Source: an uncultured Chloroflexia bacterium
GTDB lineage: Bacteria > Chloroflexota > Limnocylindria > Limnocylindrales > CSP1-4
Length of the DNA: 64,000 bases
NCBI GenBank assembly: GCA_963794525.1
Contig: CAWCEC010000003.1
Location: 124,003 to 188,002 of the forward strand
Reading direction: 5' to 3'
The notes under the pieces were generated by a model. It saw only the letters and a program-made list of their open reading frames with translations, was not told the origin of the DNA and searched no databases. The stretch's first letter is position 1. Each line of letters opens with the position of its first letter. Both the position numbers and the translations under genes were made by a program. This document shows, piece after piece, positions 7,309-38,213 of the stretch.

Positions 7309-7436
7309 CGACTAACGATACGCGCCACTCCCGGCCATGGATCCCGCGGGCGACATCCCGCTGGCGACGGCGGGCGCGCAGGCTTACCGTATCCTCGGGA
7401 CCCCAGCCTGTTGCGACATGGAGGCAAGTCCGTCCG

Positions 7437-9404
7437 ATGACGGTCGAGACAGTCGAGCTCGGTCGCGACGCGATCGATCGACGCGCCTGGGAGGAAGCGG
7501 TCGAGGCCTTCGACGCCGCCGACCGTGATGGTGCGCTGGCACCGGCAGACCTCGAGCTGCTGGGCGCCGCCCGGTGGTGGTCAGGACACCCCGCGGAGGC
7601 TGCCGACGCGCTCGAGCGTGCGTTCACGGGGTTCGTCGAGACCGGCGCGGTCAAGGAGGCCGCCTGGGTCGCGCTCCAGCTCGCGTATCAGGCATTCCGA
7701 CGTCGGCTGAGCTCCATCGGCGGCGGGTGGCTGATGCGCGCCGAACATCTCCTCGAGGGTCAGCCCGAGTCGAACATCCACGCCCGGGCCATGGTGTTCC
7801 AGGCCATCGGAGCGTTGATGGCGAGCCGCCTCACGGAAGGGACCGAGCTCGCCGATCGTGCGATGGAGCTGGCTCGGAAACACGATGACCTGAACTCGAT
7901 GTACATGGCGATGAGCCTCAAGGGCTTGGGGAACGTGTTCGGCGGCGACTGGCAAGCCGGCCTCGCCCTCATCGATGAGGCCGCAACGGCCGCATCATCC
8001 GGTCAACTCGACCTACGCGTAGCGAGTGACATCTACTGCAACACGATCGCCGCGTGCCGGGACATCGGGGACTACAAGCGGGCCGGGCAGTGGGCAGAGG
8101 AAGGCGAGCGCTGGATGCGCCGCCAGTCGATCGGCGGCTACCCGGGCATCTGTCGGGTCCATCGCGCGGAGCTCAAGATGCTGCGCGGCCTGTGGCCCGA
8201 GGCGGAGCAGGAGGCACGCCAGGCGTGCGAGGAACTCGAGCGTTTCGGGCTTCTCGATTCCATGGGTTGGGCGCACTACCAGGTCGGCGAGGTCCGCTTG
8301 CGGATGGGCGACCTCGATGGTGCAGCAGAGGCGTTCGACCGGGCATACGAGTACGGGCACGATGCCCAGCCCGGCTTGGCGCTGCTGCAACTGGCTCGTG
8401 GCGAGGTCGACGAAGCTGCCCGCTCCATCGCGCGGGCGATCGCCGTGACGAAGGGGGCCGACCGGAACATCGATCGGGCCACCCGCGCCCGCCTGTTGCC
8501 CGCCCAGATCGACATCGCGCTCGCCGCAGGCGATCTCGAAACGGCCGGTCCGGCCGTCGATGAGCTCGAGTCGATCGCGACCGACTTCCAGCGACCGGTC
8601 TTCGAGGCGGGCGCGCTGACGGCGCGGGGCGAACTCCTCCTCCGCGAGGACCGGCCGGCCGAGGCATCCCCGATCCTGGGGCGATCCTGGCGGCTCTGGC
8701 AGGAGTCCGACCTCCCGTACGAGAGCGCGCTGGCCCGCCTCCACTACGCCGAGGCGCTGGCGGCCGACGGTGACGAGACGGCTTCTCGGCGCGATCTTCG
8801 TGCGGCTCGAAGCGCGTTCGAGCGCCTGGGCGCGACGCGGGACCTGCAGCGGGTCGATGCCATGCTCGGCGAGGACGCGGCCATGGCTGCCCCGTCATCG
8901 CGGCGCGTGACCAAGACGTTCATGTTCACCGACATCGTCACCTCGACCGACCTGGTCGGCCTCATCGGCGACGACGCCTGGGAGGAGCTGCTGCGCTGGC
9001 ACGACCGGGAGCTGCGATCGGCGTTCGCGCACCATCGTGGCGAGGAGGTCAATTCGACGGGCGACGGCTTCTTCGTCGCCTTCGAGCGGGCGGCCGACGC
9101 CATCGACTGCGCGGTCGACATCCAGCGCCGGCTCACGCGCCACCGTCGTGAGCACGGCTTCGCCCCGTTGGTCCGCATCGGGATCCACACCACCGAGGCG
9201 GCACACCAGGGCAGGGACTACCGGGGTAAGGGTGTGCACGTCGCTGCTCGCGTCAGTGCTGCCGCGGCCGCGGAGGAGATCCTTGTCTCGAGCGCCGCGC
9301 TGAGCGGGACAGGGCCGATCCGGTTCAGCCTGTCCGAGCCGCGTCAGCTGACGCTCAAGGGCGTCGAGGAGCCCGTGGAGGCGCGCAGCGTCGACTGGCG
9401 CTAG
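7437..9404 (+). CDS. TPR-repeat protein with a C-terminal class III adenylate/guanylate cyclase domain
   Basis: Start at MTVETVELG; the upstream part of the ORF overlaps the convergent lipoprotein gene. Cyclase motifs FMFTDIVTSTDL and NSTGDGFFVAFE are present, with TPR-like helical repeats N-terminal to them. Confidence 0.8.
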   Translation: MTVETVELGRDAIDRRAWEEAVEAFDAADRDGALAPADLELLGAARWWSGHPAEAADALERAFTGFVETGAVKEAAWVALQLAYQAFRRRLSSIGGGWLMRAEHLLEGQPESNIHARAMVFQAIGALMASRLTEGTELADRAMELARKHDDLNSMYMAMSLKGLGNVFGGDWQAGLALIDEAATAASSGQLDLRVASDIYCNTIAACRDIGDYKRAGQWAEEGERWMRRQSIGGYPGICRVHRAELKMLRGLWPEAEQEARQACEELERFGLLDSMGWAHYQVGEVRLRMGDLDGAAEAFDRAYEYGHDAQPGLALLQLARGEVDEAARSIARAIAVTKGADRNIDRATRARLLPAQIDIALAAGDLETAGPAVDELESIATDFQRPVFEAGALTARGELLLREDRPAEASPILGRSWRLWQESDLPYESALARLHYAEALAADGDETASRRDLRAARSAFERLGATRDLQRVDAMLGEDAAMAAPSSRRVTKTFMFTDIVTSTDLVGLIGDDAWEELLRWHDRELRSAFAHHRGEEVNSTGDGFFVAFERAADAIDCAVDIQRRLTRHRREHGFAPLVRIGIHTTEAAHQGRDYRGKGVHVAARVSAAAAAEEILVSSAALSGTGPIRFSLSEPRQLTLKGVEEPVEARSVDWR

Positions 9405-9433
9405 CCGCCGCACGCCCTCGAAAGACTGCGCTC

Positions 9434-12295: not shown

Positions 12296-13327
12296 TCAGC
12301 GCCAGTCTGGGATACCGCCGAGCGCGTGGGCGATGCCGTCCGCACGCAGTTCCAACCGGCCCGTGCCATCCGGACGTACAACATACAGCGCGCGGCCCGA
12401 GACAAGGAGGTAGCGGCCGTCCGGCGACCAGGCGACGAACTGGCCGACCTCGCTCGTGACACGGTGTTGGTCCGAGCCGTCGACGTTCATGACCCAGATG
12501 TCGCGATACTGATCGTCGGGCTCTCCTGTTTGCCAGCACTCCTCGTCCGCATCACGGAACTCGCAGTCGTCGCGTTCTGAGGAGAAGGCGATCGACGCGC
12601 CATCGGGTGACCAGACCGCCCAGCTGTCGTCGCCGGGGTGGTCGGTCAGCTGTCCCGTCGCTCCGGTCGCGAGGTCGGCGACGTAGATCTCGTAGTCGCT
12701 TCCGTCGTGGCCCTCGTATGCGATCCGCTGGCCGTCGGGCGAGAACGACGGGTATTCGAACCAGCCGTCGACGTCGATCGCGCGCAGATTCGACCCGTCC
12801 GGATCGACGAGATAGCCGCGCAGCCGACCACCGCCCCGGTCCGAGTTGAAGACGATCGTGCGACCGTCCGGCGACCAATCCGGACCCCAGTCGTTCGCAG
12901 GATCGTTCGTGATGTTCCGCCGCTCAGAGCCGTCCGCGCGTGCCACGAAGACCTCATCGTTCTCGTTGAGGCCACGGGTCGAGTCGCGGTAGACGACCCA
13001 CTCGCCGTCCGGCGACCAGGCCCCGTCGAATTCCGGGCCGACCGCGCCGGCAACCGTGACGACGTTCGAGCCGTCGATGTCCATGGCGAAGACGTCCTCG
13101 AAGTCGTCGAACACGATTCGCCCCGAGAGCTCGGCGAGCTCGGTCGGCTCGCCGGTCGAGATCGGTTCCCAGCCGCTGTGGACGACTCGCGAGGGCAGGG
13201 GAGTGCCGATCGAGGACGCTGCCGATGGCGCTTCGAAGAAACTCGGGCTGGCCGTGACGCTCGGTCCGGCGCAGCCGGTGAGCGAGATCGCGAGCACGGC
13301 TGCCGCCACGGGTCGAAGCGATGCCAC
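12296..13327 (-). CDS. lipoprotein with TolB-like (PD40) beta-propeller repeats
   Basis: Repeated WSPDG motifs. The likely GTG start at 13327 gives a lipoprotein signal VASLRPVAAAVLAISLTGC; the longer ORF extends to 13486. Confidence 0.65.
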   Translation of the reverse strand: MASLRPVAAAVLAISLTGCAGPSVTASPSFFEAPSAASSIGTPLPSRVVHSGWEPISTGEPTELAELSGRIVFDDFEDVFAMDIDGSNVVTVAGAVGPEFDGAWSPDGEWVVYRDSTRGLNENDEVFVARADGSERRNITNDPANDWGPDWSPDGRTIVFNSDRGGGRLRGYLVDPDGSNLRAIDVDGWFEYPSFSPDGQRIAYEGHDGSDYEIYVADLATGATGQLTDHPGDDSWAVWSPDGASIAFSSERDDCEFRDADEECWQTGEPDDQYRDIWVMNVDGSDQHRVTSEVGQFVAWSPDGRYLLVSGRALYVVRPDGTGRLELRADGIAHALGGIPDWR

Positions 13328-13412
13328 GTGCGCTCTACACCTGGCGACGTGTTTCGGTTCCGCAAAGTCTGCGACAGCCGAGCTGTCATGGACCGACCAC
13401 AGGATCATCGGC

Positions 13413-13664
13413 ATGGCCAAGGGTTCGAACGACTTCCGACATGCCGAGGCGGCGTGGTCCGCGGCTCGCCGGATGATCGCCCGCAAGGACCGGCCGTGCT
13501 ACCGCGTCGCCGAGACGGGCGACGGCGCGACCGTCCACATCGTCGAGCTGCCCTGGATCGCGCCGATCGAAGCGAGCCGCCGCGACGCCATCGATCGCGC
13601 CCGCGAGACGATCGCAGGCTGGCTCGACGTCCAGCCCGACGCTTTCGATGTCGAGCGAGGGTAG
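13413..13664 (+). CDS. small hypothetical protein (HicB/UPF0150-like?)
   Basis: 83-aa ORF with AGGA 8 nt upstream. The HIVELPWIAPIEASRRDAIDRARETIAGWL region resembles the HicB N-terminal fold; weak. Confidence 0.35.
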   Translation: MAKGSNDFRHAEAAWSAARRMIARKDRPCYRVAETGDGATVHIVELPWIAPIEASRRDAIDRARETIAGWLDVQPDAFDVERG

Positions 13665-13906: not shown

Positions 13907-15050
13907 TCACCGATCCGAGGTCTTGGCCTCGAACAGCTCCCACTCGCCCGGCACGCCCCGCAGGCTGGTGGCGCCAAGCGGGCTGAATACCAGGTCGGTG
14001 CCGGTGACCAGGTCGCGCACGGTCCTGGTCACGACGACCTGACTGCGTTCGGCGGGACCGAGCAGTCGCGCGGCGATGTGGATCGCGATACCGCCGATGC
14101 CGGTCTCGCGACGCTCGATCTCGCCGGTGTGGATGCCCACCCGGGTCTCGCAACCGAGATCCCGCGCCGCCTCGACCAGACCGAACGCGCAGCGCAGCGC
14201 CCGTGTCGGGGCGTCGAAGACCGCCATGACGCCATCGCCGGCGAACTCGACGTGTTCGCCGTGCCACCGCTCGACCTCGACTTGGACGGCCCGCTCGTGC
14301 TGCTCGAGGAGCTTCTTCCAGGCGCGATCTCCCATCGCGGCCGCGCGACCGGTCGAAATCGACGATGTCCGCGAACAGGACCGTCGCCAATGTCCGATCG
14401 ATGTCCTCTGCAGCCTGCAGCGATCGGACCTGTTCGTTGGTCCACTGGTATTCGTCGACGAAGCGGCTCGTCGGGACGTCGGGGTCGGGTCGGTAGGTGA
14501 GCAGGACGACGCCGGAGCTGAAGGTGCGTGAGCCCACGAGGCGCAGGTGGTGGGTGTCGATGCGGTCGCGGAAGAGACGCTTGCCGCTGCCCAGGATCAC
14601 CGGGTAGACCTGCAGTCGGTACTCGTCCACCAGATCGTGACGCAGGAGCTCGTCGACCAGGTCCGGGCTGCCGAACACCACCAGGTCGCCGCCCGGTTTC
14701 GCCTTCAACGTCCTGACCTCGCCCGCCACGTCACCCGAGACGATCGTGGAGTTGCTCCAATCGGCCCGCTTGAGCGTGTTGGAAACGACGTACTTCGGGA
14801 CGCGGTTCATCCACTCGATGAATTCGGCATCGCCCCCGCTGGCCGTCGGCCAGAACGCCGCCCAGATCTGCCAGGTCCGACGGCCCAACAGCATCGCGTC
14901 GGCAGACATCGCCTGTTCCATGTTGTAGCGCTGATCCTCGTCGTTCTGGACGCGCAGAGCCCAGGCGTTCCGGCCGCTCCGATGCTCGTCGAACCCGGGC
15001 GCCTCGACGATGCCATCGACGGTCACGAAGGAGGCCACGACAAGCTTCAT
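13907..15050 (-). pseudogene. DHFR-like (RibD C-terminal domain) protein fused to a class III adenylate cyclase domain, interrupted by a single frameshift near 14335-14354
   Basis: The N-terminal RibD_C-like domain (MKLVVASFVTVDGIVEAPG, VVFGSPDLVDELLRHDLVDEYRLQVYPVILGSGKRLF) runs into the cyclase start LATVLFADIVDF. The cyclase continues in another frame (ORF 13907-14335: GDRAWKKLLEQHERAV...FAGDGVMAVFD). Confidence 0.7.
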
Positions 15051-15120: not shown

Positions 15121-15933
15121 GTGCCTCTTTTCATGGACCGTCACGAGCTCGCGGGTGCGACGCCAGAAGACATCGCGGCGGCCCATACCGCAGACCTCGA
15201 CGTCCAGGGCCGGTTCGGCGTCCAGTACCTCACCTACTGGCTCGACTACGAGCGTCAGCGGGCGTTCTGTCTGGCCAGCGGTCCGGACCGCGACTCTGTC
15301 GTCGCAGTCCATCGAGCGAGTCATGGGATGCTCCCCAACGAGGTCATCGAAGTCGATGGGGGAGATGTCGAGCGCTACCTCGGCCCGATCCGCAACCATG
15401 CGCCGGGGGAGGTCTACGTGGAGACTGCCTTCCGGACGATCGTGTTCACCGACATCGTCGGATCGACCCGGCTCACGCAGCAGCTCGGAGACAGCGCGGC
15501 GATGGAGCTCCTGCGGGTGCATGACCGGATCGCGCGGGGTGCCGTCGGGCAGCGCGGCGGATCGGAGGTCAAACACACCGGTGACGGATTGATGGCGTCA
15601 TTCGGATCGGTCAGCGCGGCACTGGAGTCGTCCGTGGCCATCCAGCGCGAACTCGCCGATCACAACCGGACTGCGCCGCATCCGGTGGAGGTCCGGATCG
15701 GCGTGGCCGCGGGGGAACCGGTCCTCGAGAACGACGACCTGTTCGGGGCGGCCGTGCAGCTCGCCGCACGCCTGTGCGATCGCGCTCGACCCGGATCGAT
15801 CCTCGTGTCGGGTGCGGTCCGCGACCTCTCCATCGGCAAGCGGTTCGACTTCCAGCGCCGCGGCCGACTCACGATGAAGGGCTTCGATGAACCGGTCACC
15901 CTGTTCGAGGTCAGCTGGCAGGGGCCGGCTTGA
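15121..15933 (+). CDS. DUF4242-domain protein fused to a class III adenylate cyclase domain
   Basis: GTG start gives (M)PLFMDRHELAG, as in DUF4242. Cyclase motifs FRTIVFTDIVGSTRL and HTGDGLMASF follow. It is divergent from the frameshifted cyclase gene, with about 70 bp between the start codons. Confidence 0.8.
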   Translation: MPLFMDRHELAGATPEDIAAAHTADLDVQGRFGVQYLTYWLDYERQRAFCLASGPDRDSVVAVHRASHGMLPNEVIEVDGGDVERYLGPIRNHAPGEVYVETAFRTIVFTDIVGSTRLTQQLGDSAAMELLRVHDRIARGAVGQRGGSEVKHTGDGLMASFGSVSAALESSVAIQRELADHNRTAPHPVEVRIGVAAGEPVLENDDLFGAAVQLAARLCDRARPGSILVSGAVRDLSIGKRFDFQRRGRLTMKGFDEPVTLFEVSWQGPA

Positions 15934-16322
15934 TGAGCGCCCCGGCCGCGATCGTCTTCGCGATCCTCACCCTCGTCGCCGTCGGGTTCCAGGTCGCCCT
16001 CGCGCTCGGCGCGCCGTGGGGCGAATACGCGATGGGCGGCGCCAACCGGGGCAGGCTTCCACCGGCGATGCGCATCGCGGCACTCGTCCAGGCGATCATC
16101 CTCAGCATCCTGGCCCTGGGCGTCCTCCAGCGGGCAGGGCTGGTCGATGTCCCGATCCTGCGGGATCTGCCGTGGCTGATCTGGGTAGCCGTGGCGTTCT
16201 CGGCGGTCAGCCTCGTGCTCAACGCCATCTCGCGAAGCGCCGGGGAGCGACGGATCTGGGTGCCGGTGGCGCTGTTGATGCTCGGCTCGAGCCTGCTGGT
16301 GGCCCTCACGGCGGGACCATAG
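15930..16322 (+). CDS. small integral membrane protein
   Basis: 130 aa with four predicted transmembrane helices. The start overlaps the stop of the upstream gene (ATGA). Confidence 0.55.
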   Translation: MMSAPAAIVFAILTLVAVGFQVALALGAPWGEYAMGGANRGRLPPAMRIAALVQAIILSILALGVLQRAGLVDVPILRDLPWLIWVAVAFSAVSLVLNAISRSAGERRIWVPVALLMLGSSLLVALTAGP

Positions 16323-16884: not shown

Positions 16885-17892
16885 GTGCCTTCCGTGGCCA
16901 CACAGCGCTTCGAGTCATCCGTCACCGCGGTGTCGTGGATCCCGTCAGAGGCGATCAGCGGCCCATCCAAGATCCCGTTCGAGTTCGGTGTGACCCACTA
17001 CGACGATCCCCCGCCGGATCGGCTCGAGGACATCGAGCAGCTGCGGACGAGTGACCGCTTCCGCGAAGCGAACGAGCTGCGCGGGTTCATCGAGGTCGAG
17101 GACGGCAAGATCGTGCGTGCCGGCCACCTCGGGCAGGGCCACATCGGCGCCACCACCGTCCGGGTCGGGCCGGCCGCCCTGCGCTTCCCCGCGGTCCAGC
17201 TGCCGGACATCCAGGCCGAGCCGGAGATCGGCCCCTCGTCCGCCCGCTTCGTCCAGACGGTCGGCGGCCGCATGGGCCTTCCCACGCCGCGACCCGTGCC
17301 GCACAAGCCATTCGTCCAGTTCTGGCCATCGATCGCCTGGACGACGCTCGCGCTGACGATCAACGCCGACGGCAGCTCGAGCCATGAGCTCCTGGGCGCG
17401 AGCGCGTTCCCGCGCCATTGGATCTACGACGACGAGGGAACGCTGACCGAGAAGTCCGGGGTGATCGACTTCGGGAAGTGGTTCAACGACTCGTTCGGCG
17501 AGCGGACGCCGTGGGGCGACCAGGACTCACCGACGGTCGTGGCCGCGGTCGAGTCGGCGCTCGAGCGGTCGCTGTCGAGCGCGATCATGAGCGGCGGCAC
17601 CAAGCCGAAGATCCAGACCATCCCGGAGGGCACCAACCTCGTCCGCCAGGGTCAGGGCGGCACGGAGGTCTACCTGATCCTCGACGGGATCTTCGTGGTC
17701 GAGGTCGACGATCGTGAGGTCGCCGAGATCGGTCCGGGTGCTGTGGTCGGCGAGCGAGCCGCGCTCGTGAACGGCACGCGAACGGCCACGTTATGGGCCC
17801 GCACGCCTGGCCGCGTCGCCAGCGTTCCCTATGACGCGCTCGATTCGCAGGCGCTCGGGAGCCTCGCGGCGGCGCATCAGCGCGAAAGGTAA
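16885..17892 (+). CDS. protein with a C-terminal cyclic-nucleotide-binding domain; N-terminal domain unknown
   Basis: GTG start. cNMP region EVYLILDGIFVVEVDDREVAEIGPGAVVGERAALVNGTRTATLWA. Confidence 0.7.
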   Translation: MPSVATQRFESSVTAVSWIPSEAISGPSKIPFEFGVTHYDDPPPDRLEDIEQLRTSDRFREANELRGFIEVEDGKIVRAGHLGQGHIGATTVRVGPAALRFPAVQLPDIQAEPEIGPSSARFVQTVGGRMGLPTPRPVPHKPFVQFWPSIAWTTLALTINADGSSSHELLGASAFPRHWIYDDEGTLTEKSGVIDFGKWFNDSFGERTPWGDQDSPTVVAAVESALERSLSSAIMSGGTKPKIQTIPEGTNLVRQGQGGTEVYLILDGIFVVEVDDREVAEIGPGAVVGERAALVNGTRTATLWARTPGRVASVPYDALDSQALGSLAAAHQRER

Positions 17893-17933: not shown

Positions 17934-19844
17934 ATGGATCGTGATCCGCTGGCACTGTCCGCCGAGTCCATGCGCGAGATGGGCTACGCGGTCGTGGACA
18001 TGCTCATCGCGCGGATCGAGGCGCTTCGGAGCGGACCGGTCCTTCGGACCGAAACCCTCGAGCGGATGCTGGAGCGCCTCGACGGACCGCCATCGGCCGG
18101 GCCGCGCGACTTCACGGAGCTCCTTCGTGGTCTCGATGAGGACGTCCTGCCATTCGTCGGCCACTTCGACCATCCGCAATTCTTCGGCTACATCCCGGGC
18201 GCCGGCACGTGGCCCGCGGCGCTCGGAGACCTGATCGCGGCAGCCACCAATATCGATGCCGGCGCCTGGCGGGAAGGCGTCGGGCCGACCACGCTGGAGC
18301 TCATCGTCCTCGACTGGTTCCGTGACTGGATCGGCTACCCCGAGTCGGCGTCTGGAGTCCTCGTGTCCGGCGGGTCGGCCGCGAACCTCACGGCGATCGC
18401 GTGTGCCAGAGAGGCGCTCATCGGTCCGATGTCACCGCGCATCGTCATGTACACCGGCGACCAGACCCACTCGTCGGTCGCTCGCGCCGCGCGCCACCTC
18501 GGCTTCCGGCCCGATCAGCTCCGCGTTCTGCCGAGCGACGAGTCATTCCGCCTGCGTCCAGGGGACGTCGCCGCGGCGATCGACGCCGACATCGCCGCGG
18601 ATCGGCTGCCGTTCCTCGTCAGCGCGAACGCCGGCACGACGAACACCGGTGCGGTCGACCCGATCGGCGACCTTGCCAAGGTGTGCCACGACCGTGGTGT
18701 CTGGCTCCATGTCGATGGGGCGTACGGCGCATTCGCGGTCCTGACGGAACGCGGTCGGCAAGCGATGCCCGACCTCGCTGCCGCGGATTCCGTGACCCTC
18801 GATCCGCATAAGTGGCTCGCGATGCCGTTCGAGGTCGGCTGTCTGCTCGTGCGGGATGGGGCGATGCTCGAGGGGGCATTCGAGTTGCACCCCGAGTACC
18901 TCAAGGACCGCGACGAGCACGCGGGCGTCAATTTCGCGGATCGAGGGCTGCAGCTGACACGGGCCAGCCGCTCGATCAAGGTCTGGCTGGCCATCGAAAC
19001 GTTCGGACTTGATGCCTTCCGGGCGGCCATCGACCGCGCGATCGATCAAACACTCGCGGCCCAGGCCCGGATCGAGGCCGACCCGCGGCTCGAGCTCATG
19101 ACCTCGGCCTCACTCGGGATCCTCACGTTCCGCCGTCGAGGCACGCCCAGCGAGCCCACCATCGTCACGGACCGCCGCAATGAAGCCATCGTCAAGTCGA
19201 TCGCTGCGAGCGGCAAGGTCCTGCTCACGTCGACGATGGTCCAGGGGCGCTATGCGATCCGCATGTGCGTGCTCAACCACACGACGGAGGATGAGGACGT
19301 CGTCTTCGCACTCGACCGTGTCGCCGAGGCGGACGTGTCGGACCTCGAGGTCGCGGCATCGCAGCCGACGGGGCGACAGGTCGCCGGGACGACCGTGGAG
19401 GCGGCTGCGGCGGCACCCTCAGGATCGCGCGGGGCTGACCTCAGGCGTGTGCGCGGGTTCGAATCGCTCACCGACGAGCAGGCGACGCGCTTTCTCGCGG
19501 TCGCACGAGAGGAAACGCGTCGGAGAGGCGAGACCATCACCGAGCGCTGGGCACATGCCCGCACGTTCTACATCGTGCTCGACGGCGAGGTGTCGATCAC
19601 GATCGATGGCGTCGAGGTGAACCGTCTGGCCGGCGGCGAGTCCTTCGGTGAGATCGCCGCGATCGATTGGGGCCGTGATTTCAGCTACGGCCGGACGGCG
19701 ACGGTGACCACGACGATGCCGACGCGGCTCCTGGCCGTGCCGGGCGCGGCGCTGCGCGAGCTGATGCTCGACGCACCACGGGTCGATGCCTCGATCCGCC
19801 AGATCGCCTTCGAACGCATGCGTCGCGTAGGGACCACCGTCTGA
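17934..19844 (+). CDS. group II PLP-dependent amino-acid decarboxylase (aromatic-L-amino-acid / glutamate decarboxylase family) fused to a C-terminal cNMP-binding domain
   Basis: PLP-lysine motif SVTLDPHKWL and conserved VSGGSAANLTA. C-terminal cNMP region FYIVLDGEVSITIDG...GESFGEIAAI...RTATV. Confidence 0.85.
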   Translation: MDRDPLALSAESMREMGYAVVDMLIARIEALRSGPVLRTETLERMLERLDGPPSAGPRDFTELLRGLDEDVLPFVGHFDHPQFFGYIPGAGTWPAALGDLIAAATNIDAGAWREGVGPTTLELIVLDWFRDWIGYPESASGVLVSGGSAANLTAIACAREALIGPMSPRIVMYTGDQTHSSVARAARHLGFRPDQLRVLPSDESFRLRPGDVAAAIDADIAADRLPFLVSANAGTTNTGAVDPIGDLAKVCHDRGVWLHVDGAYGAFAVLTERGRQAMPDLAAADSVTLDPHKWLAMPFEVGCLLVRDGAMLEGAFELHPEYLKDRDEHAGVNFADRGLQLTRASRSIKVWLAIETFGLDAFRAAIDRAIDQTLAAQARIEADPRLELMTSASLGILTFRRRGTPSEPTIVTDRRNEAIVKSIAASGKVLLTSTMVQGRYAIRMCVLNHTTEDEDVVFALDRVAEADVSDLEVAASQPTGRQVAGTTVEAAAAAPSGSRGADLRRVRGFESLTDEQATRFLAVAREETRRRGETITERWAHARTFYIVLDGEVSITIDGVEVNRLAGGESFGEIAAIDWGRDFSYGRTATVTTTMPTRLLAVPGAALRELMLDAPRVDASIRQIAFERMRRVGTTV

Positions 19845-19921
19845 GACTGTCTGGGCGGGCGCGTCACGAGCCTCGTCATCCGTCGCCGACGGACCACCGC
19901 TCGACGGACTAGGCTGCCGTC

Positions 19922-21328
19922 ATGACGTCCTCGCAAGCCGTTTCGCCAACAGCCGCCCAGCTCGAAACGTTTCGTCGGTCCTTCGCGGGCGAGGTGATCA
20001 CGCCCGATGCCGCCGGCTACGACGATGCCAGGCGGGTCTGGAACGCGATGTTCGATCGTCGACCGGCCATGGTCGTCCGACCCTCGAGTGTCGCCGACGT
20101 CGTCGCGGCCGTTCGCTTCGGCCGCGAGCTCGATCTCGAGATCGCGGTCCGCGGTGGTGGTCACAGCGCCGTCGGGCACTCGACGACCAACGGCGGCCTG
20201 GTCATCGACCTCGGGCGGATGAACGAGGTCACCGTCGACCCGGCGCAGCGACTCGCTCGCACGGGCGGTGGGGCGCTCCTCGGCAAGCTCGACATCGCGG
20301 CCCAGGAGCACGGGCTCGTCTGCCCGGTCGGAGTCGTCGGCCACACGGGTGTGGCCGGCTTGACGCTCGGTGGCGGCGTCGGGCGGCTCCAGCGGCGGTT
20401 CGGGCTGACGATCGATAGCCTTCGCTCGGTCGAGCTCGTGACCGCCGACGGGCGCCTGGTGCGGGCGAGCGCGGACGAGGAGCCGGAGCTGTTCTGGGGC
20501 CTCCGCGGCGCCGGCGCGAACTTCGGCGTCACGACGAGCCTGGAGCTCGAGCTGCACCCCTTTCCGGGAACGCTCCACCGAGGCGTCCACGTCCACCCGG
20601 CGACTGACATCCAGGAGCTCTGGCCGATCTTCCGCGAGTTCATGGCGACGGCCCCCGAAACCATCGCGGCGATCTTCACCGTCGCCCTCGCAGAGCCGGC
20701 GGCGAACTACCCCAATTCGGTCGCCGGTCGGCCGATCGTCGTCATCTCCTACAACCACAGCGGGGCAGGGGAGGACGCGGAGCGCGACGTCGCGCCATTG
20801 CTAAAGGGCCCGGCACCAGCCTCGAAGACCGCCACCAGCGAGGAGTACCTGGTCGCCCAGCGTTCGAGCGACCTCGACCTGGCATGGGGCTCCCGGACCG
20901 CCATCCTCGGTGGCTACGTCGCGGATTGTTCGCCGGCCGTGCTGGATGCGTTCGTCGGGCACGTGGAGCACGTGCCGGGCGACAGCAGCATCTCGGTAAC
21001 GGCGATGGGCGGCGCGATCGCTCGCGTGGCGGACGACGCGATGGCATTCACCGGCCGTCCCCACCCCTTCGACGTCAGCCCCGACACGGCCTGGTCCGAT
21101 CCGGCCCTCGACGAGGCGAACATGGAATGGGCACGGCGGGCGATGGCGATCATCGAGCCAGACATGCTTCCCGGCCGCTACATCAACGAGTTGTCCGATG
21201 CGGGTCCCGAGATCACGCGATCCAGCTACGGCGACGCCAAGCTGGAGCGATTACAGACGCTCAAGCGAGCCTGGGACCCGACCAACGTCTTCCACCTGAA
21301 CCACAACGTCGAGCCCGCCGGCGGCTGA
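19922..21328 (+). CDS. FAD-binding oxidoreductase (FAD_binding_4 / berberine-bridge-enzyme-like)
   Basis: RPSSVADVVAAVRFGRE, GGGHS and a C-terminal BBE-like tail LKRAWDPTNVFHLNHNV. Confidence 0.85.
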   Translation: MTSSQAVSPTAAQLETFRRSFAGEVITPDAAGYDDARRVWNAMFDRRPAMVVRPSSVADVVAAVRFGRELDLEIAVRGGGHSAVGHSTTNGGLVIDLGRMNEVTVDPAQRLARTGGGALLGKLDIAAQEHGLVCPVGVVGHTGVAGLTLGGGVGRLQRRFGLTIDSLRSVELVTADGRLVRASADEEPELFWGLRGAGANFGVTTSLELELHPFPGTLHRGVHVHPATDIQELWPIFREFMATAPETIAAIFTVALAEPAANYPNSVAGRPIVVISYNHSGAGEDAERDVAPLLKGPAPASKTATSEEYLVAQRSSDLDLAWGSRTAILGGYVADCSPAVLDAFVGHVEHVPGDSSISVTAMGGAIARVADDAMAFTGRPHPFDVSPDTAWSDPALDEANMEWARRAMAIIEPDMLPGRYINELSDAGPEITRSSYGDAKLERLQTLKRAWDPTNVFHLNHNVEPAGG

Positions 21329-21330
21329 CA

Positions 21331-21350
21331 CGGTGGGTTGATACTGCCGG
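21331..21350 (+). promoter_or_regulatory. 20-nt motif CGGTGGGTTGATACTGCCGG immediately 5' of the amine-oxidase ATG; copy 1 of a shared motif
   Basis: Near-identical to 27055-27075, CGGTGGGGTCGATACTGCCGG, which is 5' of the acyl-CoA synthetase ATG. The core GATACTGCCGG recurs, inverted, in the palindrome at 26375-26393. Confidence 0.4.
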
Positions 21351-21351
21351 C

Positions 21352-22798
21352 ATGACGATGCCGGCCGACCCTGAGCACCACGCGGAGCTCGATGTTGCGA
21401 TCGTGGGAGCGGGCGCGGCCGGAACGTACCTCGGCTATCGGCTGATCCGGGCCCGTCCGGACTGGCGGATCGCGATCTTCGAGCGGTCGACCCGGATCGG
21501 CGGCCGCCTCTGGAGTGTGAAGGTCGACGGGCTCGCGCACCCGATCGAGCTCGGGGGCATGCGCTACATGTCCGGGCATCCGCTGATCCAGTCGATCGTC
21601 GACGAGTTGGGGATCGAAACACGCGCCTTCGATACCGCCGAGCAACCCGAACGGACCTTCCTGCGTGGCGTGGTGGGTGACAGCCCGGACGATCCTGATG
21701 GCGGGCGTGGCTATGACCTGGCGGCCAAGGAGGCGGGACGGTCGGCGTCCGATCTCATGCGGGCTGCCTTCCTCAGGATCGTGCCGCAGGCCGGCGAGCT
21801 CGACGAGCCGGCCTGGCGTCGACATCGCGCGACGGCGACATTCGGCGGGCGGCCGCTCACGGACTGGTCGATCGAGGAGGCCGTCGCGACGATCCTCAGC
21901 CCGCAGGCCCATCGCTTCGCCACCGACGCGTTCGGCTACGACTCTGGCATCCGCCCCCATAACGCTGGCGACGCGATCCAGTACGTCATGGGCACCGGCT
22001 ATCCGTCGGGTGAGGCGCGCGTTCCCGTCGACGGCATGGACTGGATCCCGCGTGAGCTCGTCAAACAGTTCATGGCGCTCGGGGGGATCGTCGAGCTCGG
22101 CCACGACCTGCTTCGGGTCGATCCAGAGGAGAGGAGCGTCCTTCTCGGCTTCGCCGACGGCTCAGGCGTCCGGGCGCGAAGGCTTGTCCTCACGCTCCCG
22201 ATCCCCGCCCTCGAGGCACTGGCCGATGGCTCGCCACTCATCAACGGTCCGACATGGCGACGGCTGTACAGGTCGATCGCGGGCTACCCGGCGACGAAGC
22301 TGTACTGCTGGTACGACCGGCCCTGGTGGCGCGACGGCAAAGACGCCCCCACCGGCCTCCGGACGACGACAGACTTGCCGCCCCGCAAGATCTTCTACTT
22401 CGACGAGGGGCCCGATCGACCCGCCGCGATGCTCGCCGCCTTCACCGACTTTCGGCACAACGAGCCGATCGTCGCCCTGGCCGAGAGCCCGGGTGGCGGA
22501 GCACCGGCTCCAGGGCCGCTCCTGGAGGCGCTCCGGGGCTGGCTGCGCCCATCCGGGCGCGGAGGTCCCCACTCTGCCCCTCGGCTCCGCGTTCCAACAC
22601 TGGGGCGCCGACCCGCGGGAGGTCGCATGGCACTTCTGGCGGCAGGGCAGCAACTCCGACGAGATGATCGACCTCGCCGCGCAGCCAGACCCATCCCTGC
22701 CGATCCACCTGTGCGGCGAAGTGTTCTCGCGCCGCGGCGCTTGGGTGGAGGGCGCCCTCGAGACGGCGAAGGCTGTCGCCGACCGCGTCGTGGGCTGA
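21352..22798 (+). pseudogene. flavin-containing amine oxidase (NAD(P)/FAD-binding), single frameshift near 22535-22545
   Basis: Dinucleotide-binding fold DVAIVGAGAAGTY. The C-terminal tail GEVFSRRGAWVEGALETAKAVADRV lies in frame 2. Removing one C from a CCC run restores LRGWLRHPGAEVP. Confidence 0.7.
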
Positions 22799-23243: not shown

Positions 23244-24554
23244 ATGACGCACTATCGGCAGCGCTCGAGGGGCAGGCGCTGGCTTTCGATGCCCATGGCG
23301 ATCGCGCTGATCGCCATCTCACTGCTGATCCCGGCCACATCCGTCTCGGCCCGCGAGCCGACCGACATGGTCCTCGAGTGGAACATCAATGCGATCAACG
23401 CGATCGGCAACCCCGCGGACGCGACTCCGCCCGGCCTCGGTCAGCCACCCCCGCTTGCGCCGATCCACCTCGCGATGGTCCACGGCGCGATCTACGACGC
23501 CGTGATGGCGATCGTCGACACCCACGAGGAGTATCTGGACGGTCTCAACGCACGGAGGTCGTCCTCCCAGCCGGCCGCCGTCGCGGCTGCGGCGCACGGA
23601 GTGCTCGTTGGCCTCACGTCTGGGTCGCCGACGGTCAAGGCCAGCGTCGACAGCCTCTATGCCGCGTCCCTTGCGAAGATTCGCAACGGAACGGCCAAGC
23701 AGCGGGGGATCACCGTCGGCAAGGCCGCAGCGGCGGCGATGCTCGCCAACCGCGTTGGTGACGGCCGCTTTGGAACGTACGCGTTCGCAGTTGGCACGCA
23801 GCCGGGCGAATGGCGCCCCGTGCCGCCGGCCAACGCAAACACCTTCGGATGGATCAGCCTCGTCAAGCCGTTCACGCTGCGCCGAGCGGACCAATACCGG
23901 ATCGGGGCGCCATATCCCCTCACCAGTGCCGCCTACGCCAGGGAATTCAATGAGGTCAAGAGGCTCGGTGGGGCGACCTCTGTCCGGACACCCGAGCAGG
24001 CCCGGATCGCCAGCTGGGCGTCGGTCAATCCCTTCAGCATGGTCAACCGGGGGCTCCGGGACATCGCCACCAAGCGGCACCTCTCGACGAGCCAGCAGGC
24101 ACGACTGTTCGTGATGACGAGCATGTCGACGGCTGACTCCCTGATCGCCTGTTGGGAAAACAAGGATCACTGGCACTTCTGGCGACCGCAGACCGCGATC
24201 CAACTAGCAGATACAGACGGGAACCCGGCCACCGTGGCCGATCCCACCTGGACGTCGCTGATCGGAAACCCGGGCTACCCGGACCCGCCTTCAGGCTTCA
24301 ACTGCCTGGTGTCCGGGGCGATGAACGCCGCTCGCGCGTACTTCCGGACGGACAGGATGAAGTTCAGTCTCACAAGCGTAGGGGCCGCGCCCGTCACACG
24401 GAACTACACCCGATTCAGTGGCCCCATCAAGGACGCGATCGAGGGTCGCATCCTCGTCGGCATCCATTTCCGACGAGCTGATGTCCAGGGAGCCTGGCTC
24501 GGCGGGAAGGTCGCAAGATACCTCTCGACACATTACTTCGAGCGAGAAGACTGA
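23244..24554 (+). CDS. secreted PAP2-superfamily / vanadium-dependent haloperoxidase-like protein
   Basis: Signal peptide with an RR motif. Family resemblance in WHFWRPQTAI and RILVGIHFRRAD. Confidence 0.6.
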   Translation: MTHYRQRSRGRRWLSMPMAIALIAISLLIPATSVSAREPTDMVLEWNINAINAIGNPADATPPGLGQPPPLAPIHLAMVHGAIYDAVMAIVDTHEEYLDGLNARRSSSQPAAVAAAAHGVLVGLTSGSPTVKASVDSLYAASLAKIRNGTAKQRGITVGKAAAAAMLANRVGDGRFGTYAFAVGTQPGEWRPVPPANANTFGWISLVKPFTLRRADQYRIGAPYPLTSAAYAREFNEVKRLGGATSVRTPEQARIASWASVNPFSMVNRGLRDIATKRHLSTSQQARLFVMTSMSTADSLIACWENKDHWHFWRPQTAIQLADTDGNPATVADPTWTSLIGNPGYPDPPSGFNCLVSGAMNAARAYFRTDRMKFSLTSVGAAPVTRNYTRFSGPIKDAIEGRILVGIHFRRADVQGAWLGGKVARYLSTHYFERED

Positions 24555-24623: not shown

Positions 24624-26168
24624 CTACTCCGAGGCGTACTCCCGAAGCTTGCGACTGCGGGACGGGTGTCGGAGCTTGCGCAGTGCGTGCGACTCGATCT
24701 GCCGGATCCGCTCACGCGTCAGGCCGAACTCCTGGCCGACCTCCTCGAGCGTCCGTGGACGCCCGTCGTCGAGGCCGAACCGCAGCCGGAGGACATGTTC
24801 CTCGCGGCCGTCGAGGCTGTCGAGCACGTGGTCGAGCTGCTCCTTGAGCAGCTGGTTCGTGGCAGCCTCCACCGGCGAAATGGCCGTCTCGTCCTCGATC
24901 AGGGCACCGAGCTCGGTATCGCCGTCCTCGCCGATCGGCGTCTCGAGCGAGATCGGCGTCCGACCGTAGCGCTTGACCTCTTCGACGCGTTCGGGCGTGA
25001 TGGTCCAGCGCGGATCCTCGGACAGGGTCGCGGCGATCTCAGCGGCCGTGGGCTCGCGCCCGAGCTGGACCGTCAGCTCGCGCGTCGTCCGGGTCACGCG
25101 CTGCATCGTCTCGACCATATGGACCGGGACGCGGATCGTCCGCGACTGGTCGGCGACGCCGCGCTGGATCGCCTGGCGGATCCACCACGTCGCGTACGTC
25201 GAGAACTTGAAGCCGCGCTGCCACTCGAACTTGTCGACGGCACGCATCAGCCCGGCGTTGCCCTCCTGGATCAGGTCCAGGAAGCCGAGGCCGCGGTTCA
25301 TGTACTTCTTGGCATTGGCGACGACGAGTCGCAGGTTGGCCGAGATCATGTGATCCCGGGCGACCTTCGCCTGGTCGATGAGGGTGCCGCTCGCCTCGCC
25401 ATCTGTCTCGGGTCGGTATCCCAGGGTCCCGAGACCGTCGGCGTCGTGACCAACCTCGACCCAGCGACGGAGCGCGGGGATGGCGACCTCGTCGCGCGCC
25501 CAAGCGAGCATCGCGCTGAGACTCTTCTCGTCCCGGAATGCCGGGCGCCGGCCGACCGCGTGCGCCCAATCGAGCAGCGCGAGGAACGCATCGACGTCGA
25601 GTCGCTCGTTGTAGACCGCCCGAAGCGCACGGCCGCGCTCCAGGAGCTCGGCCGAAGGGCCGCCCTGAGCTGAGCGGATCGCCTCGGTGAAGCCGAAGCG
25701 GGGTGCTGTGGTGAGCAGATCGCCCGCCGACTCGTCCGCGAGCGCGGTACGCACGATCCGATGAGCCTCTGCGCCGAACGGCAGGGCGTACAGCGGATGC
25801 TTGGCGCGCGCGGTCACTTCCGTGTCGTGGAGCGTCCACTCATGAAGGTCGAGGATGGCCGTCCAGGGCTCGGTCCGGATCCGGACACCGAGCTCGATGG
25901 CCTTGGCCAAGACGACTTCTTCTTCAGCCGTCAGCAGCGGCACGCGCGCGATCTCGCGGAGGTAGAGGCGCGTCGAGTCCTCGACGTCGAGGGCAGCATC
26001 GTCCGCGATCGCCTCGCCGTCGCGCTCGAGGTCGGGCTTGCTCTGACGTGCGGTCGGGATGTCTACGACGACCGTCTCGCGCTCGATCCGCTCGAGCTCG
26101 GCAGCGGCGACGACCGTATCCGCGGGCTCGGTGTCAGTCAGTTGGGCGTTGTCAGGGATCTGGATCAA
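24624..26168 (-). CDS. RNA polymerase sigma factor, RpoD/sigma-70 family, with a long non-conserved insertion between regions 1.2 and 2
   Basis: Region 1.2 ([17 protein letters not shown]), region 2 ([57 protein letters not shown]) and region 4 ([29 protein letters not shown]). Confidence 0.85.
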
Positions 26169-30135: not shown

Positions 30136-31344
30136 TCAGGCTGACGCGGGCGCGACCTGCTTCAGGCGTCGCGAAACCGCCACGGTCGTCGCTGCAGCAA
30201 GCGCCATGACCACGACCCCGTAGCCAAGTGCCGTCGACCGCAACCCAAAGACCGACACGAGGGCCCCGGCGATGATCGTCGGCATGCTGAACGAGACGAA
30301 TACCACCACGTAGATGGCCGCGACGAGCGCACCGCGCTGCTCGGGGAGGGCCAGCGGGGACGTCGCTCGTACGAACGCCGAGAAGCCTCCGCCAAGGCCG
30401 ACACCCGCTACGACGCTGCCGCCATAGAGGAGTGCCGGATTCCCCAAGAGCACACCGAGCAGCGTCACAGCGACGCCGAGGATCACGATGGCAGAGCCTG
30501 AAACCAACAACCGATTCGCATCGACACGACGCAACAAGAACGAGGCGGCCGCACCCGTACCGCAGAGGGCGAAGATGATCAGTCCGCCAACGAGGCGGTC
30601 GGTCGTTCCCAGCGTCTCCATCGCAAGCGACGGGCCGAGTGCCAGGTACAGGCCGCCGAGCGCCCACATCCCGACGATCGCGGGCGTGGCCGCGACGAAG
30701 GCCGGCCGGACGGTGGCCGGCACCCCGATGCTCGGGCGCATCGAGGCCTGCCACCCGGGTCTGCGGCGGTCGCCTCCCGGAACGGTGACCAAGGTGACGA
30801 TCGCGATCAGATAGATGACCGCAAGGACCTGATAGACGAGGGACAACGGATCCGGTCCGTACTCCGCGAGGACAGCCGCGAACAAGGCTCCGCCGCCGAG
30901 ACCGAGCAAGGGCCCGGCGCCATTGACCACACTTCCGACTTGCGGGTCCGCTGGCGGCGACAGATCGAGCAGCCACGCGCTGACGGCGCCGGCGGCGAGC
31001 CCTATTCCCGCCCCGGTGAGGATGCGTGCCGCGAACAACAGCAGGACGTCGGTGGCCGCGATGAAGAGCAGCATCGCGAAGACCTCTGTCGCGAGCGCCG
31101 CAATGAGCACCGGCCGACGCCCGAGATGGTCGGAGAGTCGTCCTGTCGTGAGCAGCGTCGCGATGCCGCCCGCGGCATACGAGGCGTAGATGGCGGTCAG
31201 CGTCAGAGGCGAGAACCCCATCGTGACCTGGTACTCGCGGTACAGCGGCGATGGCGCGCTCGCGGCGAACAGCAGGAGCGCGAGAATGAGCGCGAGGAGC
31301 CAGAAGGCAGGGCCGCGTCCAAGAGAGAGAGCCCCTCGGTCCAT
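30136..31344 (-). CDS. MFS transporter
   Basis: 402 aa, 12 transmembrane segments, MFS motif GRLSDHLGRRPV. Confidence 0.85.
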   Translation of the reverse strand: MDRGALSLGRGPAFWLLALILALLLFAASAPSPLYREYQVTMGFSPLTLTAIYASYAAGGIATLLTTGRLSDHLGRRPVLIAALATEVFAMLLFIAATDVLLLFAARILTGAGIGLAAGAVSAWLLDLSPPADPQVGSVVNGAGPLLGLGGGALFAAVLAEYGPDPLSLVYQVLAVIYLIAIVTLVTVPGGDRRRPGWQASMRPSIGVPATVRPAFVAATPAIVGMWALGGLYLALGPSLAMETLGTTDRLVGGLIIFALCGTGAAASFLLRRVDANRLLVSGSAIVILGVAVTLLGVLLGNPALLYGGSVVAGVGLGGGFSAFVRATSPLALPEQRGALVAAIYVVVFVSFSMPTIIAGALVSVFGLRSTALGYGVVVMALAAATTVAVSRRLKQVAPASA

Positions 31345-31503: not shown

Positions 31504-31971
31504 ATGTCACAGACACCGGCGAAGCCTTTCCTTCCACCGCGGTGGTTCATCCGCGGCGCCTGGGCCCTCCATCGAGCGATCTATCGGGTCAGCGGAGGCC
31601 GCCTCGGCCTCGGACCGCCGACGGCGAAAACGTACGGAACGATGCGCCTCCACACGATCGGCCGACGGAGTCGGAAGCCGCGCGAGGCGATCCTCGGCTA
31701 CTTCGAGGACGGCCCGAACCTGTACACGCTCGCGATGAACGGGTGGGGCGAGCCAGAACCGGCATGGTGGCTCAACCTCCAGGCGAATCCCGACGTGACG
31801 ATCGATCTGGTCGACGGTCCGCGCCGATTCCGTGCACATGAGGCGACGGGCGACGAGCGCGCCCGCCTGTGGGCCGCCATGGCGGGGGTCGAGACGAACC
31901 TTGATGCGTACGCAACGCGTCGGCCGAAGGGGACCGCCCTGGTCGTGTTCGAGCCACGCCCGGACCGGTAG
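31504..31971 (+). CDS. deazaflavin (F420)-dependent nitroreductase-family protein (DUF385)
   Basis: Core motif YRVSGGRLG and LTTIGRRSGKPR-like IGRRSRKPREAILGYFEDG. Start taken at MSQTPAKP. Confidence 0.7.
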   Translation: MSQTPAKPFLPPRWFIRGAWALHRAIYRVSGGRLGLGPPTAKTYGTMRLHTIGRRSRKPREAILGYFEDGPNLYTLAMNGWGEPEPAWWLNLQANPDVTIDLVDGPRRFRAHEATGDERARLWAAMAGVETNLDAYATRRPKGTALVVFEPRPDR

Positions 31972-38197: not shown

Positions 38198-38213
38198 GCG
38201 CGGCGGCGCAACC

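Follow-up and report, generated by a model that had tools for sequence, protein, structure and literature searches.

We examined a 64,000-nucleotide stretch of DNA (the window; 69% G+C) from an uncultured soil Chloroflexia bacterium of the order Limnocylindrales (assembly GCA_963794525.1, contig CAWCEC010000003.1, positions 124,003 to 188,002), which encodes a 636-residue fusion of a pyridoxal 5'-phosphate (PLP)-dependent amino acid decarboxylase to a cyclic nucleotide-binding (CNB) domain. The core finding is real and moderately novel: a conserved fusion of a second-messenger sensor with a PLP decarboxylase, set within a cyclic AMP (cAMP) island. Our favoured reading of the whole, to which we give even confidence, is a cAMP-gated decarboxylase making an amine that is exported. 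An initial annotation of the window had read the gene order (fusion, then two flavin oxidases) as a pathway from amino acid to amine to oxidised product, its first step controlled by cyclic nucleotides from neighbouring cyclases. The sensor, the enzyme and the cyclases of that proposal hold up, and the pathway does not; the present result corrects an attractive but unsupported three-enzyme scheme for the window.

The enzyme is a homodimer-type group II PLP decarboxylase, similar to DOPA decarboxylase (DDC) and other aromatic amino acid decarboxylases (AADCs), followed by a variable linker of ~40 residues and a C-terminal CNB domain (decarboxylase, residues 1–464; linker, 465–505; CNB domain, 506–636). 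Both domains score above their Pfam cut-offs: Pyridoxal_deC (PF00282) at residues 57–400 (E = 6.6e-67, 226.3 bits against a cut-off of 27) and cNMP_binding (PF00027) at residues 530–611 (E = 6.7e-11, 42.5 bits against 27.5). A GGAGG-like ribosome-binding site lies ~14 nt upstream of the gene. In an alignment of 38 family members, on which all statements of invariance below are based, the lysine of the intact DPHKWL motif (K293) is invariant, as are D261, H179 and Y322. In a BLASTP alignment with human DDC (29% identity, E = 2e-69), they correspond in that order to K303, D271, H192 and Y332.

The residue in the catalytic loop separates decarboxylases (Tyr) from aldehyde synthases (Phe; PMC11308512), and Y322 aligns with F338 (PEFLK) of the Arabidopsis phenylacetaldehyde synthase AtPAAS (PDB 6EEI). 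With the Schiff-base lysine, the aspartate at the pyridine nitrogen, the PLP-stacking histidine and the loop tyrosine (the residue that protonates C-alpha in decarboxylases) all present, the window enzyme is predicted to be a canonical decarboxylase with an amine and CO2 as products, not an aldehyde synthase. An aldehyde-synthase reading by way of the invariant Phe334 (VNFADRG) was ruled out, since residue counting puts the catalytic position at Y322; Phe334 corresponds to DDC Y346, and DDC Y332 sits in the motif PTYLK.

The initial annotation had named a missing phosphate-binding cassette in the CNB domain as grounds for giving up its cyclic nucleotide reading. The cassette residues are present: G572, E573, W579, G580, R581, D582, F583, G586, R587, T588 and A589 are invariant, and the predicted contacts to the ribose 2'-OH (Gly-Glu) and to the phosphate (Arg-Thr-Ala) are kept. 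The cassette is longer than the canonical one, with 14 residues from Glu573 to Arg587 against 9–10. Between the cassette helix and the Arg stands a 5-residue aromatic insertion (DWGxG[FY]; Trp/Phe/Tyr-rich), which all the fused clades examined share, down to 41% identity, and which is absent from the canonical CNB domains encoded elsewhere in the window, those of a major facilitator superfamily (MFS) transporter (FGEIALLRDVPRTATV) and of a 335-residue CNB protein (GERAALVNGTRTATL). Averaged over the 38 members, the decarboxylase is 75% identical to the window protein, the linker 29%, the CNB domain 66% and the cassette 89%; the conservation of sensor and cassette relative to the linker argues that the CNB domain is under purifying selection. 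Its matches in the Protein Data Bank (PDB) are the CNB domains of PKG and PKA. A search for homologues of the CNB domain alone brought up no architecture besides the fusion itself, represented by short fragments, and this CNB subtype thus seems dedicated to the decarboxylase.

The fusion had initially been described as rare, which is correct for decarboxylases at large and incorrect for its own relatives. A library of 50%-identity clusters yields 2179 matching proteins at E < 1e-30, and among its 150 best representatives ~8–10 have the fusion at full length; yet 117 of the best 120 clusters at 90% identity carry both domains, all 120 being at least 64% identical to the window protein. Rare among decarboxylases, the fusion is a well-populated conserved family. 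Full-length homologues span 61–89% identity. Among species-representative genomes the fusion occurs in metagenome-assembled genomes (MAGs) of Chloroflexota/Limnocylindrales (61–81% identity) and in Actinomycetota (48–51%), with further fused representatives at 41–50%; the nearest unfused relatives, at 40–43%, are from Gemmatimonadota. We found no characterised decarboxylase–CNB fusion in the literature, including a 2007 survey of CNB modules. Two loci labelled Verrucomicrobiia and Patescibacteria (L011 and L027) carry typical Limnocylindria-type fusion genes (67% and 79% identity), and these phylum labels are probably binning or taxonomy errors, not real occurrences. Two relatives have other architectures: P0355 (L087, 3465–6539) is a 1024-residue decarboxylase-CNB-GNAT-CNB protein whose gene appears to share an operon with those for a WS/DGAT protein, a HAD hydrolase and an acyl-CoA ligase, and P0362 is a related decarboxylase fused to a HATPase_c_2 (anti-sigma kinase-like) domain.

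Against solved structures the decarboxylase scores highest with the Ruminococcus gnavus tryptophan decarboxylase (252 bits, E = 9e-74), followed by plant and animal aromatic decarboxylases (194–228 bits), histidine decarboxylase (188), DfoJ (168), the glutamate decarboxylases GAD65/67 (130–140) and diaminobutyrate (DABA) decarboxylases (118–138). The initial annotation had asked for this placement and had counted a grouping with housekeeping glutamate decarboxylases against itself; the enzyme falls on the aromatic side, away from the glutamate and diaminobutyrate enzymes. A Foldseek search with an AlphaFold model puts the same AADC enzymes on top (R. gnavus enzyme, E = 3.6e-34). Identity is 28.9% to RhbB and 27.3% to Pantoea Ddc, and the NCBIfam RhbB model gives 198 bits against a cut-off of 900. 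A search of a plasmid collection for annotated references returned generic names and two DABA decarboxylases (27–29% identity). The R. gnavus enzyme (PDB 4OBU/4OBV), DDC and the plant tryptophan and tyrosine/DOPA decarboxylases (TDC/TyDC) share with the window enzyme the fold, the Lys, the Asp, the His and the loop Tyr, and the R. gnavus and window enzymes both have the pocket motifs PG and QLTR/ELTR. The AADCs differ in that they lack a CNB domain, are ~29% identical to the window enzyme and, as seen in DDC, have a different pocket.

Relative to DDC the pocket changes are Thr82 to Gly89, Ile101' to Asp108 (invariant), Phe103' to Gly110 and Gly354 to Thr342. An aromatic AADC in the strict sense has a hydrophobic pocket (Thr82, Ile101' and Phe103' in DDC); the best PDB relatives are aromatic, yet Gly89, Asp108 and Gly110 occupy those positions in the window enzyme. 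Given these differences and the ~29% identity, the substrate specificity of the AADCs is not transferable. The Ile101' position is Phe in unfused relatives (Gemmatimonadota, Nostoc), Asp in the window clade and the Actinomycetota fusions, and Tyr in a fused clade whose genes are linked to agmatinase; from these residues, it looks like a specificity switch. DABA decarboxylases carry an Asp in the same pocket loop, two residues further along.

The agmatinase-linked clade is 43–50% identical to the window protein. An agmatinase gene adjoins the fusion gene in L090, L091 and L094, and the three agmatinases pass the TIGR01230 equivalog cut-off of 174.3 bits (233, 177 and 178 bits). In L091 the start of the agmatinase gene and the stop of the decarboxylase gene overlap, in L090 the agmatinase begins ~90 nt downstream, and in L094 it occurs together with a SpeY/deoxyhypusine-synthase-like gene. 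Homospermidine clusters of arginine decarboxylase, SpeB and SpeY have been described (PMC13625781), and in the three loci the fusion occupies the arginine decarboxylase slot; this match in gene arrangement suggests, by analogy, that the agmatinase-linked clade decarboxylates arginine. Transfer of the arginine/agmatine assignment to the window enzyme was rejected on the pocket residue (Tyr against Asp), and no agmatinase or SpeY homologue lies within 10 kb of the fusion gene in the window or its clade.

For the window enzyme itself, Asp108 and the sister clade linked to polyamine genes incline us towards a basic over an aromatic amino acid. A basic substrate, with a diamine or agmatine-type product, is our tentative first candidate, held at a little short of even confidence; an aromatic amino acid giving an aromatic amine is a credible second candidate to which we give somewhat less weight.

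The ~13 kb around the fusion gene hold three class III nucleotide cyclases and three CNB proteins, and the neighbourhood is a dense cyclic-nucleotide signalling island (Table 1; real genes were told apart from spurious open reading frames by third-position GC content and homology). The cyclases invoked in the initial annotation are real and number three: one is the C-terminal domain of a MalT-like protein, one is joined to a RibD_C domain and one to an SCO4226-like domain. The RibD_C–cyclase gene is kept near the fusion gene in the clade of at least 78% identity. The gene for the 335-residue CNB protein ends 41 nt upstream of the fusion gene, and a 95% identical copy stands in the same position, directly upstream of the fusion gene, in L004; the protein is also found in L006, L024 and L085. 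Its N-terminal 230-residue domain is strongly conserved and has no match in Pfam, NCBIfam or PDB, and a PDB profile search with the protein matched the CNB part alone. In L001 a second, unfused decarboxylase gene adjoins a P450 gene, with the gene for the 335-residue CNB protein two genes upstream. The best NCBIfam matches of the MFS-CNB protein are efflux types (DHA3 H+ antiporter, EntS and MefA), all below cut-off. A PD40 gene lies 18 nt upstream of it on the same strand, a pair that also occurs in L004.

The window proteins were searched against 31 other genome loci with a full-length fusion and 12 metagenome loci. In the Actinomycetota loci L031, L032 and L033 the fusion gene immediately follows an MFS-CNB gene in operonic order, across gaps of 6–50 nt; the arrangement (directly upstream, same strand) recurs in metagenome locus L096, and in L041, also from Actinomycetota, the MFS-CNB gene is divergent from the fusion gene. 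Among other distant fusions, a plain MFS gene adjoins the fusion gene in L086 and lies 1 kb away in L088. In Chloroflexota, MFS-CNB genes are found 2–8 kb from the fusion gene (the window, L004, L008, L023 and L030).

In our favoured reading, cAMP from the neighbouring cyclases would bind the CNB domain and switch the decarboxylase on, and the cationic amine product would leave the cell through the efflux-type MFS-CNB protein, a carrier that would answer to cAMP as well. We infer the gating by analogy with three systems, and its likely mechanism would be the relief of C-terminal autoinhibition by cAMP. In mycobacterial Pat (Rv0998/MSMEG_5458) a CNB domain is fused to an enzyme, and cAMP binding relieves autoinhibition. 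Pat resembles the window protein as a bacterial CNB domain joined directly to a metabolic enzyme; the NCBIfam Pat model matches the CNB part of the window MFS-CNB protein, and P0355 likewise combines GNAT and CNB domains. In Pat, however, the output domain is a GNAT, the CNB domain is N-terminal and the cassette is canonical and free of the insertion, whereas the window protein places its CNB domain C-terminal to a PLP decarboxylase. The C-terminal plug of Escherichia coli GadB and the calmodulin-binding autoinhibitory tail of plant glutamate decarboxylase (GAD) gate the active site, the plant trigger being Ca2+/calmodulin. These enzymes belong to the same Pfam family as the window enzyme and offer a precedent for control by a C-terminal extension, although their extensions are short peptides answering to pH or Ca2+, and the window protein has a folded domain on an enzyme closer to the AADCs. 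For export, CadA/CadB, SpeF/PotE and TyrDC/TyrP place a decarboxylase beside an amine transporter, as in the loci where fusion and MFS genes adjoin; the transporters of the fusion loci are MFS proteins (DHA/EntS-like) with a CNB domain of their own, whereas the CadA/CadB-type pairs use APC antiporters.

Several observations weigh against this reading. The MFS-CNB gene of the window lies 5.6 kb from the fusion gene on the opposite strand, and some MFS proximity is expected by chance, MFS genes being common. The Chloroflexota clade at 61–67% identity has no conserved neighbour of the fusion, so the transporter link is not universal; because no neighbour is conserved there, we conclude that the fusion functions as a self-contained unit. 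On the side of the substrate, the solved structures nearest to the window enzyme are aromatic decarboxylases, and the Tyr/Asp pocket difference blocks the borrowing of a substrate from the agmatinase-linked clade. On the side of the ligand, the cassette insertion falls exactly in the loop that shapes the cyclic nucleotide pocket, and the residue following the cassette Arg varies across distant clades (T, L, M, V or N), so a ligand other than cAMP, or a loss of binding, is possible. The AlphaFold2 model of the full protein (38-sequence alignment; mean predicted local distance difference test score 69.5, predicted template-modelling score 0.65) has low confidence at residues 76–118, the catalytic loop, the linker and the cassette insertion, and is uninformative on the docking of the CNB domain and its interface.

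To our knowledge, few bacterial cAMP effectors have been described beyond the CRP-type regulators, most of them in mycobacteria. A family of this kind, widespread in soil bacteria, would add a new cAMP output, a sensor–PLP decarboxylase often paired with a cyclic-nucleotide-sensing exporter, and the messenger would directly switch the production and release of an amine or polyamine. The protein would also offer a compact model of allostery (one polypeptide, one ligand and a CO2/amine read-out) and possibly a ligand-controlled decarboxylase for engineering. A fuller proposal is a new class of direct cAMP effector, in which a DDC-fold decarboxylase that turns Arg, Lys or Orn into a polyamine precursor (agmatine or a diamine) would be gated by a specialised CNB domain with the DWGxG[FY] insertion in its cassette and work with a cyclic-nucleotide-gated MFS exporter; this we regard as rather doubtful. 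If true, it would represent a fold class of basic-amino-acid (arginine) decarboxylase not recognised so far, as well as the first direct second-messenger control of a bacterial enzyme of polyamine/biogenic-amine synthesis; we know of no recognised Arg, Orn or Lys decarboxylase class that has a DDC-like group II fold and a CNB domain. If the agmatinase-linked clade is an arginine decarboxylase, it would be another independent origin of that activity.

That the CNB-like domain senses neither cAMP nor cGMP, and instead responds to another ligand (substrate, product or a different nucleotide) or serves as a structural or oligomerisation module, is unlikely in our estimate. The CNB fold binds non-nucleotide ligands in the CooA, NtcA and CprK families, the insertion stands in the cassette of every family member, the post-Arg position is variable, and the related CNB-less lineage represented by P0362 carries HATPase_c_2 on the same decarboxylase. 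Set against these points, nucleotide binding is defined by the Gly-Glu and Arg-(Thr)-Ala residues, which do not vary within the window clade, cyclases and canonical CNB proteins surround the gene, and the partner that recurs across phyla is a canonical CNB-fused transporter.

A variable specialised-metabolite island, in which the amine made by the fusion would be modified by an EncM-like oxygenase, by P450 enzymes (in relatives) and by other tailoring enzymes under cAMP tuning, is improbable. It would account for the presence of the fusion, EncM-like, CNB-protein, RibD_C–cyclase and sigma factor genes within ~10 kb despite heavy rearrangement, for a P450 gene in the same gene set in L001, L004, L007 and L008, for the unfused second decarboxylase beside its P450 gene in L001, and for the acyl-CoA ligase and WS/DGAT genes next to the GNAT-bearing fused relative. 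However, the co-location does not reach beyond close relatives, in which inherited synteny could produce it, deeper clades have none of these neighbours, and no core biosynthetic genes (polyketide synthase, including type II, non-ribosomal peptide synthetase or terpene) turned up among the window genes scanned.

The two flavoenzyme genes downstream form a module of their own. The first, correctly annotated at the outset as encoding a berberine bridge enzyme (BBE)-like FAD oxidase directly downstream of the fusion, is of the EncM type by its domains (FAD_binding_4 and BBE), its conserved FAD-linking His (RGGGHS) and its full-length similarity to EncM (PDB 3W8W; E = 3e-103 over residues 12–466), the enterocin flavin-N5-oxide oxygenase; NCBIfam BagK/FevA1 gives 173 bits, below the 800-bit cut-off. 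EncM differs in its type II polyketide context. The second gene had been called a flavin amine oxidase. An Amino_oxidase gene is indeed present, and its product is of the L-amino-acid-oxidase type: in the PDB it matches bacterial L-amino-acid oxidases best (8JHE at E = 8e-32, with L-Lys oxidase and AncLAAO next), putrescine oxidase is well behind at E = 1.5e-9, and the protein does not fall with the free-amine oxidases (MAO/putrescine-oxidase type). In alignment, its ELGGMR motif supplies the counterpart of the Arg with which HTAncLAAO2 binds the substrate carboxylate (R67, or R65 in chain numbering; PMC10517122). With this affinity and this Arg, the oxidase should act on amino acids, not on decarboxylated amines.

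An orthologue of the EncM-like gene lies within 10 kb of the fusion gene in 8 of the 9 intact loci of the clade of at least 78% identity. It stands directly downstream in the window only; elsewhere it is 1.3–7 kb away, on either side, with genes between, and it is absent from the vicinity of the fusion in the 61–67% clade, the Actinomycetota loci and the metagenome clades. The oxidase gene is beside the fusion gene in none of 40 other loci. Two loci without the fusion carry both flavoenzymes, L084 in the order EncM-like, Kelch, oxidase and, further on, sigma factor, and L085 in the order SCO4226-cyclase, F420H2 reductase, oxidase, BBE-like, so that an orthologue of the window's SCO4226-cyclase gene adjoins the oxidase pair. 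Because the two are paired in these loci and the oxidase never accompanies the fusion elsewhere, the EncM-like and L-amino-acid-oxidase-like genes make up a recurring pair of their own, which the window merely places beside the fusion. A three-step operon running from a cAMP-gated decarboxylase through the BBE-like oxidase to a flavin amine oxidase, for which the shared strand and the gaps of 77 and 23 nt speak together with the BBE-like orthologues of close relatives, is very improbable given an oxidase of amino-acid type that is frameshifted in this assembly and absent from beside the fusion elsewhere, and a BBE-like gene that accompanies the fusion only in the clade of at least 78% identity.

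Table 1. Features of the window in order of position (window coordinates)
Feature	Position	Strand	Evidence or remark
MalT-like TPR protein with C-terminal class III cyclase domain	7179-9404	+	Pfam TPR_MalT; Guanylate_cyc E 1.2e-7; tblastn cyclase matches 8886-9416
MFS transporter with C-terminal canonical CNB domain, 551 aa	10622-12277	-	Pfam MFS_1 E 8.4e-23, CNB E 1.1e-18
PD40/WD40-like beta-propeller	12296-13486	-	Pfam PD40 E 4.7e-28
RibD_C domain and class III cyclase	13910-15050	-	380-aa L004 homologue, 86-87% identity
SCO4226-like domain and class III nucleotide cyclase	15133-15933	+	Pfam SCO4226-like E 1.6e-16, Guanylate_cyc E 1.4e-15; NCBIfam matches
Small conserved protein	15930-16322	+	
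335-aa protein, N-terminal 230-aa domain and canonical CNB domain	16885-17892	+	Pfam CNB E 2.8e-13; cassette GERAALVNGTRTAT
Decarboxylase-CNB fusion, 636 aa	17934-19844	+	Pfam PF00282, PF00027
PLP-binding Lys293 codon (motif DPHKWL)	18810-18812	+	Invariant; aligns to human DDC K303
Catalytic-loop Tyr322 codon (HPEYLKD)	18897-18899	+	Invariant; aligns to DDC Y332 and 6EEI F338
Phosphate-binding cassette FGEIAAIDWGRDFSYGRTATV, aa 571-591	19644-19706	+	38-member alignment
Family-specific extra residues within IDWGRDFSYG loop	19665-19679 (aa 578-582)	+	
EncM-like FAD-dependent oxidase/oxygenase, BBE/VAO superfamily, 468 aa	19922-21328	+	Pfam FAD_binding_4 and BBE
L-amino-acid-oxidase-like flavoprotein, frameshifted	21352-22798	+	Pfam Amino_oxidase in two frames
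Vanadium-haloperoxidase/PAP2-like protein, signal-peptide-like N-terminus	23244-24554	+	PDB 4CIT E 3e-14; NapH3 8CXL E 7e-8
Group 1-type sigma-70 factor, synteny anchor with related genomes	24624-26168	-	Pfam sigma-70 regions 1.2, 2, 3, 4

Two genes of the window are frameshifted. The initial annotation had suspected a frameshift near 22540 in the oxidase gene, and our placement is 22547/22548, a point at which L084 and L085 have 5 nt more than the window; intact homologues, which are ~483 residues long and up to 85% identical, read WL and AAAHPG on the two sides of the junction. The N-terminal part runs on to 22875 in the wrong frame, and the deposited call (P0214, 507 residues) is this read-through. 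The C-terminal piece is as conserved (83–87%) as the N-terminal piece (76–80%), so the lesion is recent or an artefact. An assembly error is plausible, but a 5-nt gap is atypical of homopolymer error and may be real. In the RibD_C–cyclase gene the reading frame shifts at ~14357, where a run of T is one letter longer than in L004 and L001 (GATTTCG against GA-TTCG). The 380-residue L004 protein matches 15050–14358 in frame -3 and then 14356–13910 in frame -1, at 86–87% identity, and this frameshift looks like a long-read homopolymer error. Split genes also occur in sister long-read MAGs: the EncM-like gene of L084 (5072–6468) lies in three frames, P0309 is broken, and L034, L035 and L054 each have an interrupted fusion gene. 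Without read support, a frameshift in data from this source should not be taken as the mark of a pseudogene.

Beyond the oxidase, the secreted PAP2/haloperoxidase-like protein pointed out initially has a weak but real match to the Zobellia vanadium iodoperoxidase (PDB 4CIT), and its Pfam VCPO_2nd score is below cut-off. It reads PSGF, as does NapH3 (PDB 8CXL), where the iodoperoxidase has SGH; with PSGF in place of SGH, the protein may not be a haloperoxidase. No such gene was found near the fusion in the other loci examined. The sigma-70 gene that follows has copies 74–90% identical in L004, L007, L009, L030 and L084. Scans for promoters, terminators, Rfam families and tRNAs around the genes gave nothing informative, and the decarboxylase, EncM-like, oxidase, 335-residue CNB and haloperoxidase-like genes reach no NCBIfam equivalog cut-off.

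Further out, an MFS/spermidine synthase fusion gene (31971–33479, + strand; NCBIfam NF037959, 343 bits against a cut-off of 40) adjoins a second MFS gene (30136–31344, - strand); it lies 12 kb downstream of the decarboxylase gene, a possible but distant polyamine link. A protein encoded at 4022–5965 (+ strand) joins a T2SSE (type II/IV secretion ATPase) domain to a C-terminal RidA/L-PSP (Ribonuc_L-PSP) domain, an unusual pairing. At 34263–40502 (+ strand), large neighbouring genes with SWIM and DUF5691 domains and with DUF5682 (E = 4e-86 and 4e-262) form a conserved pair.

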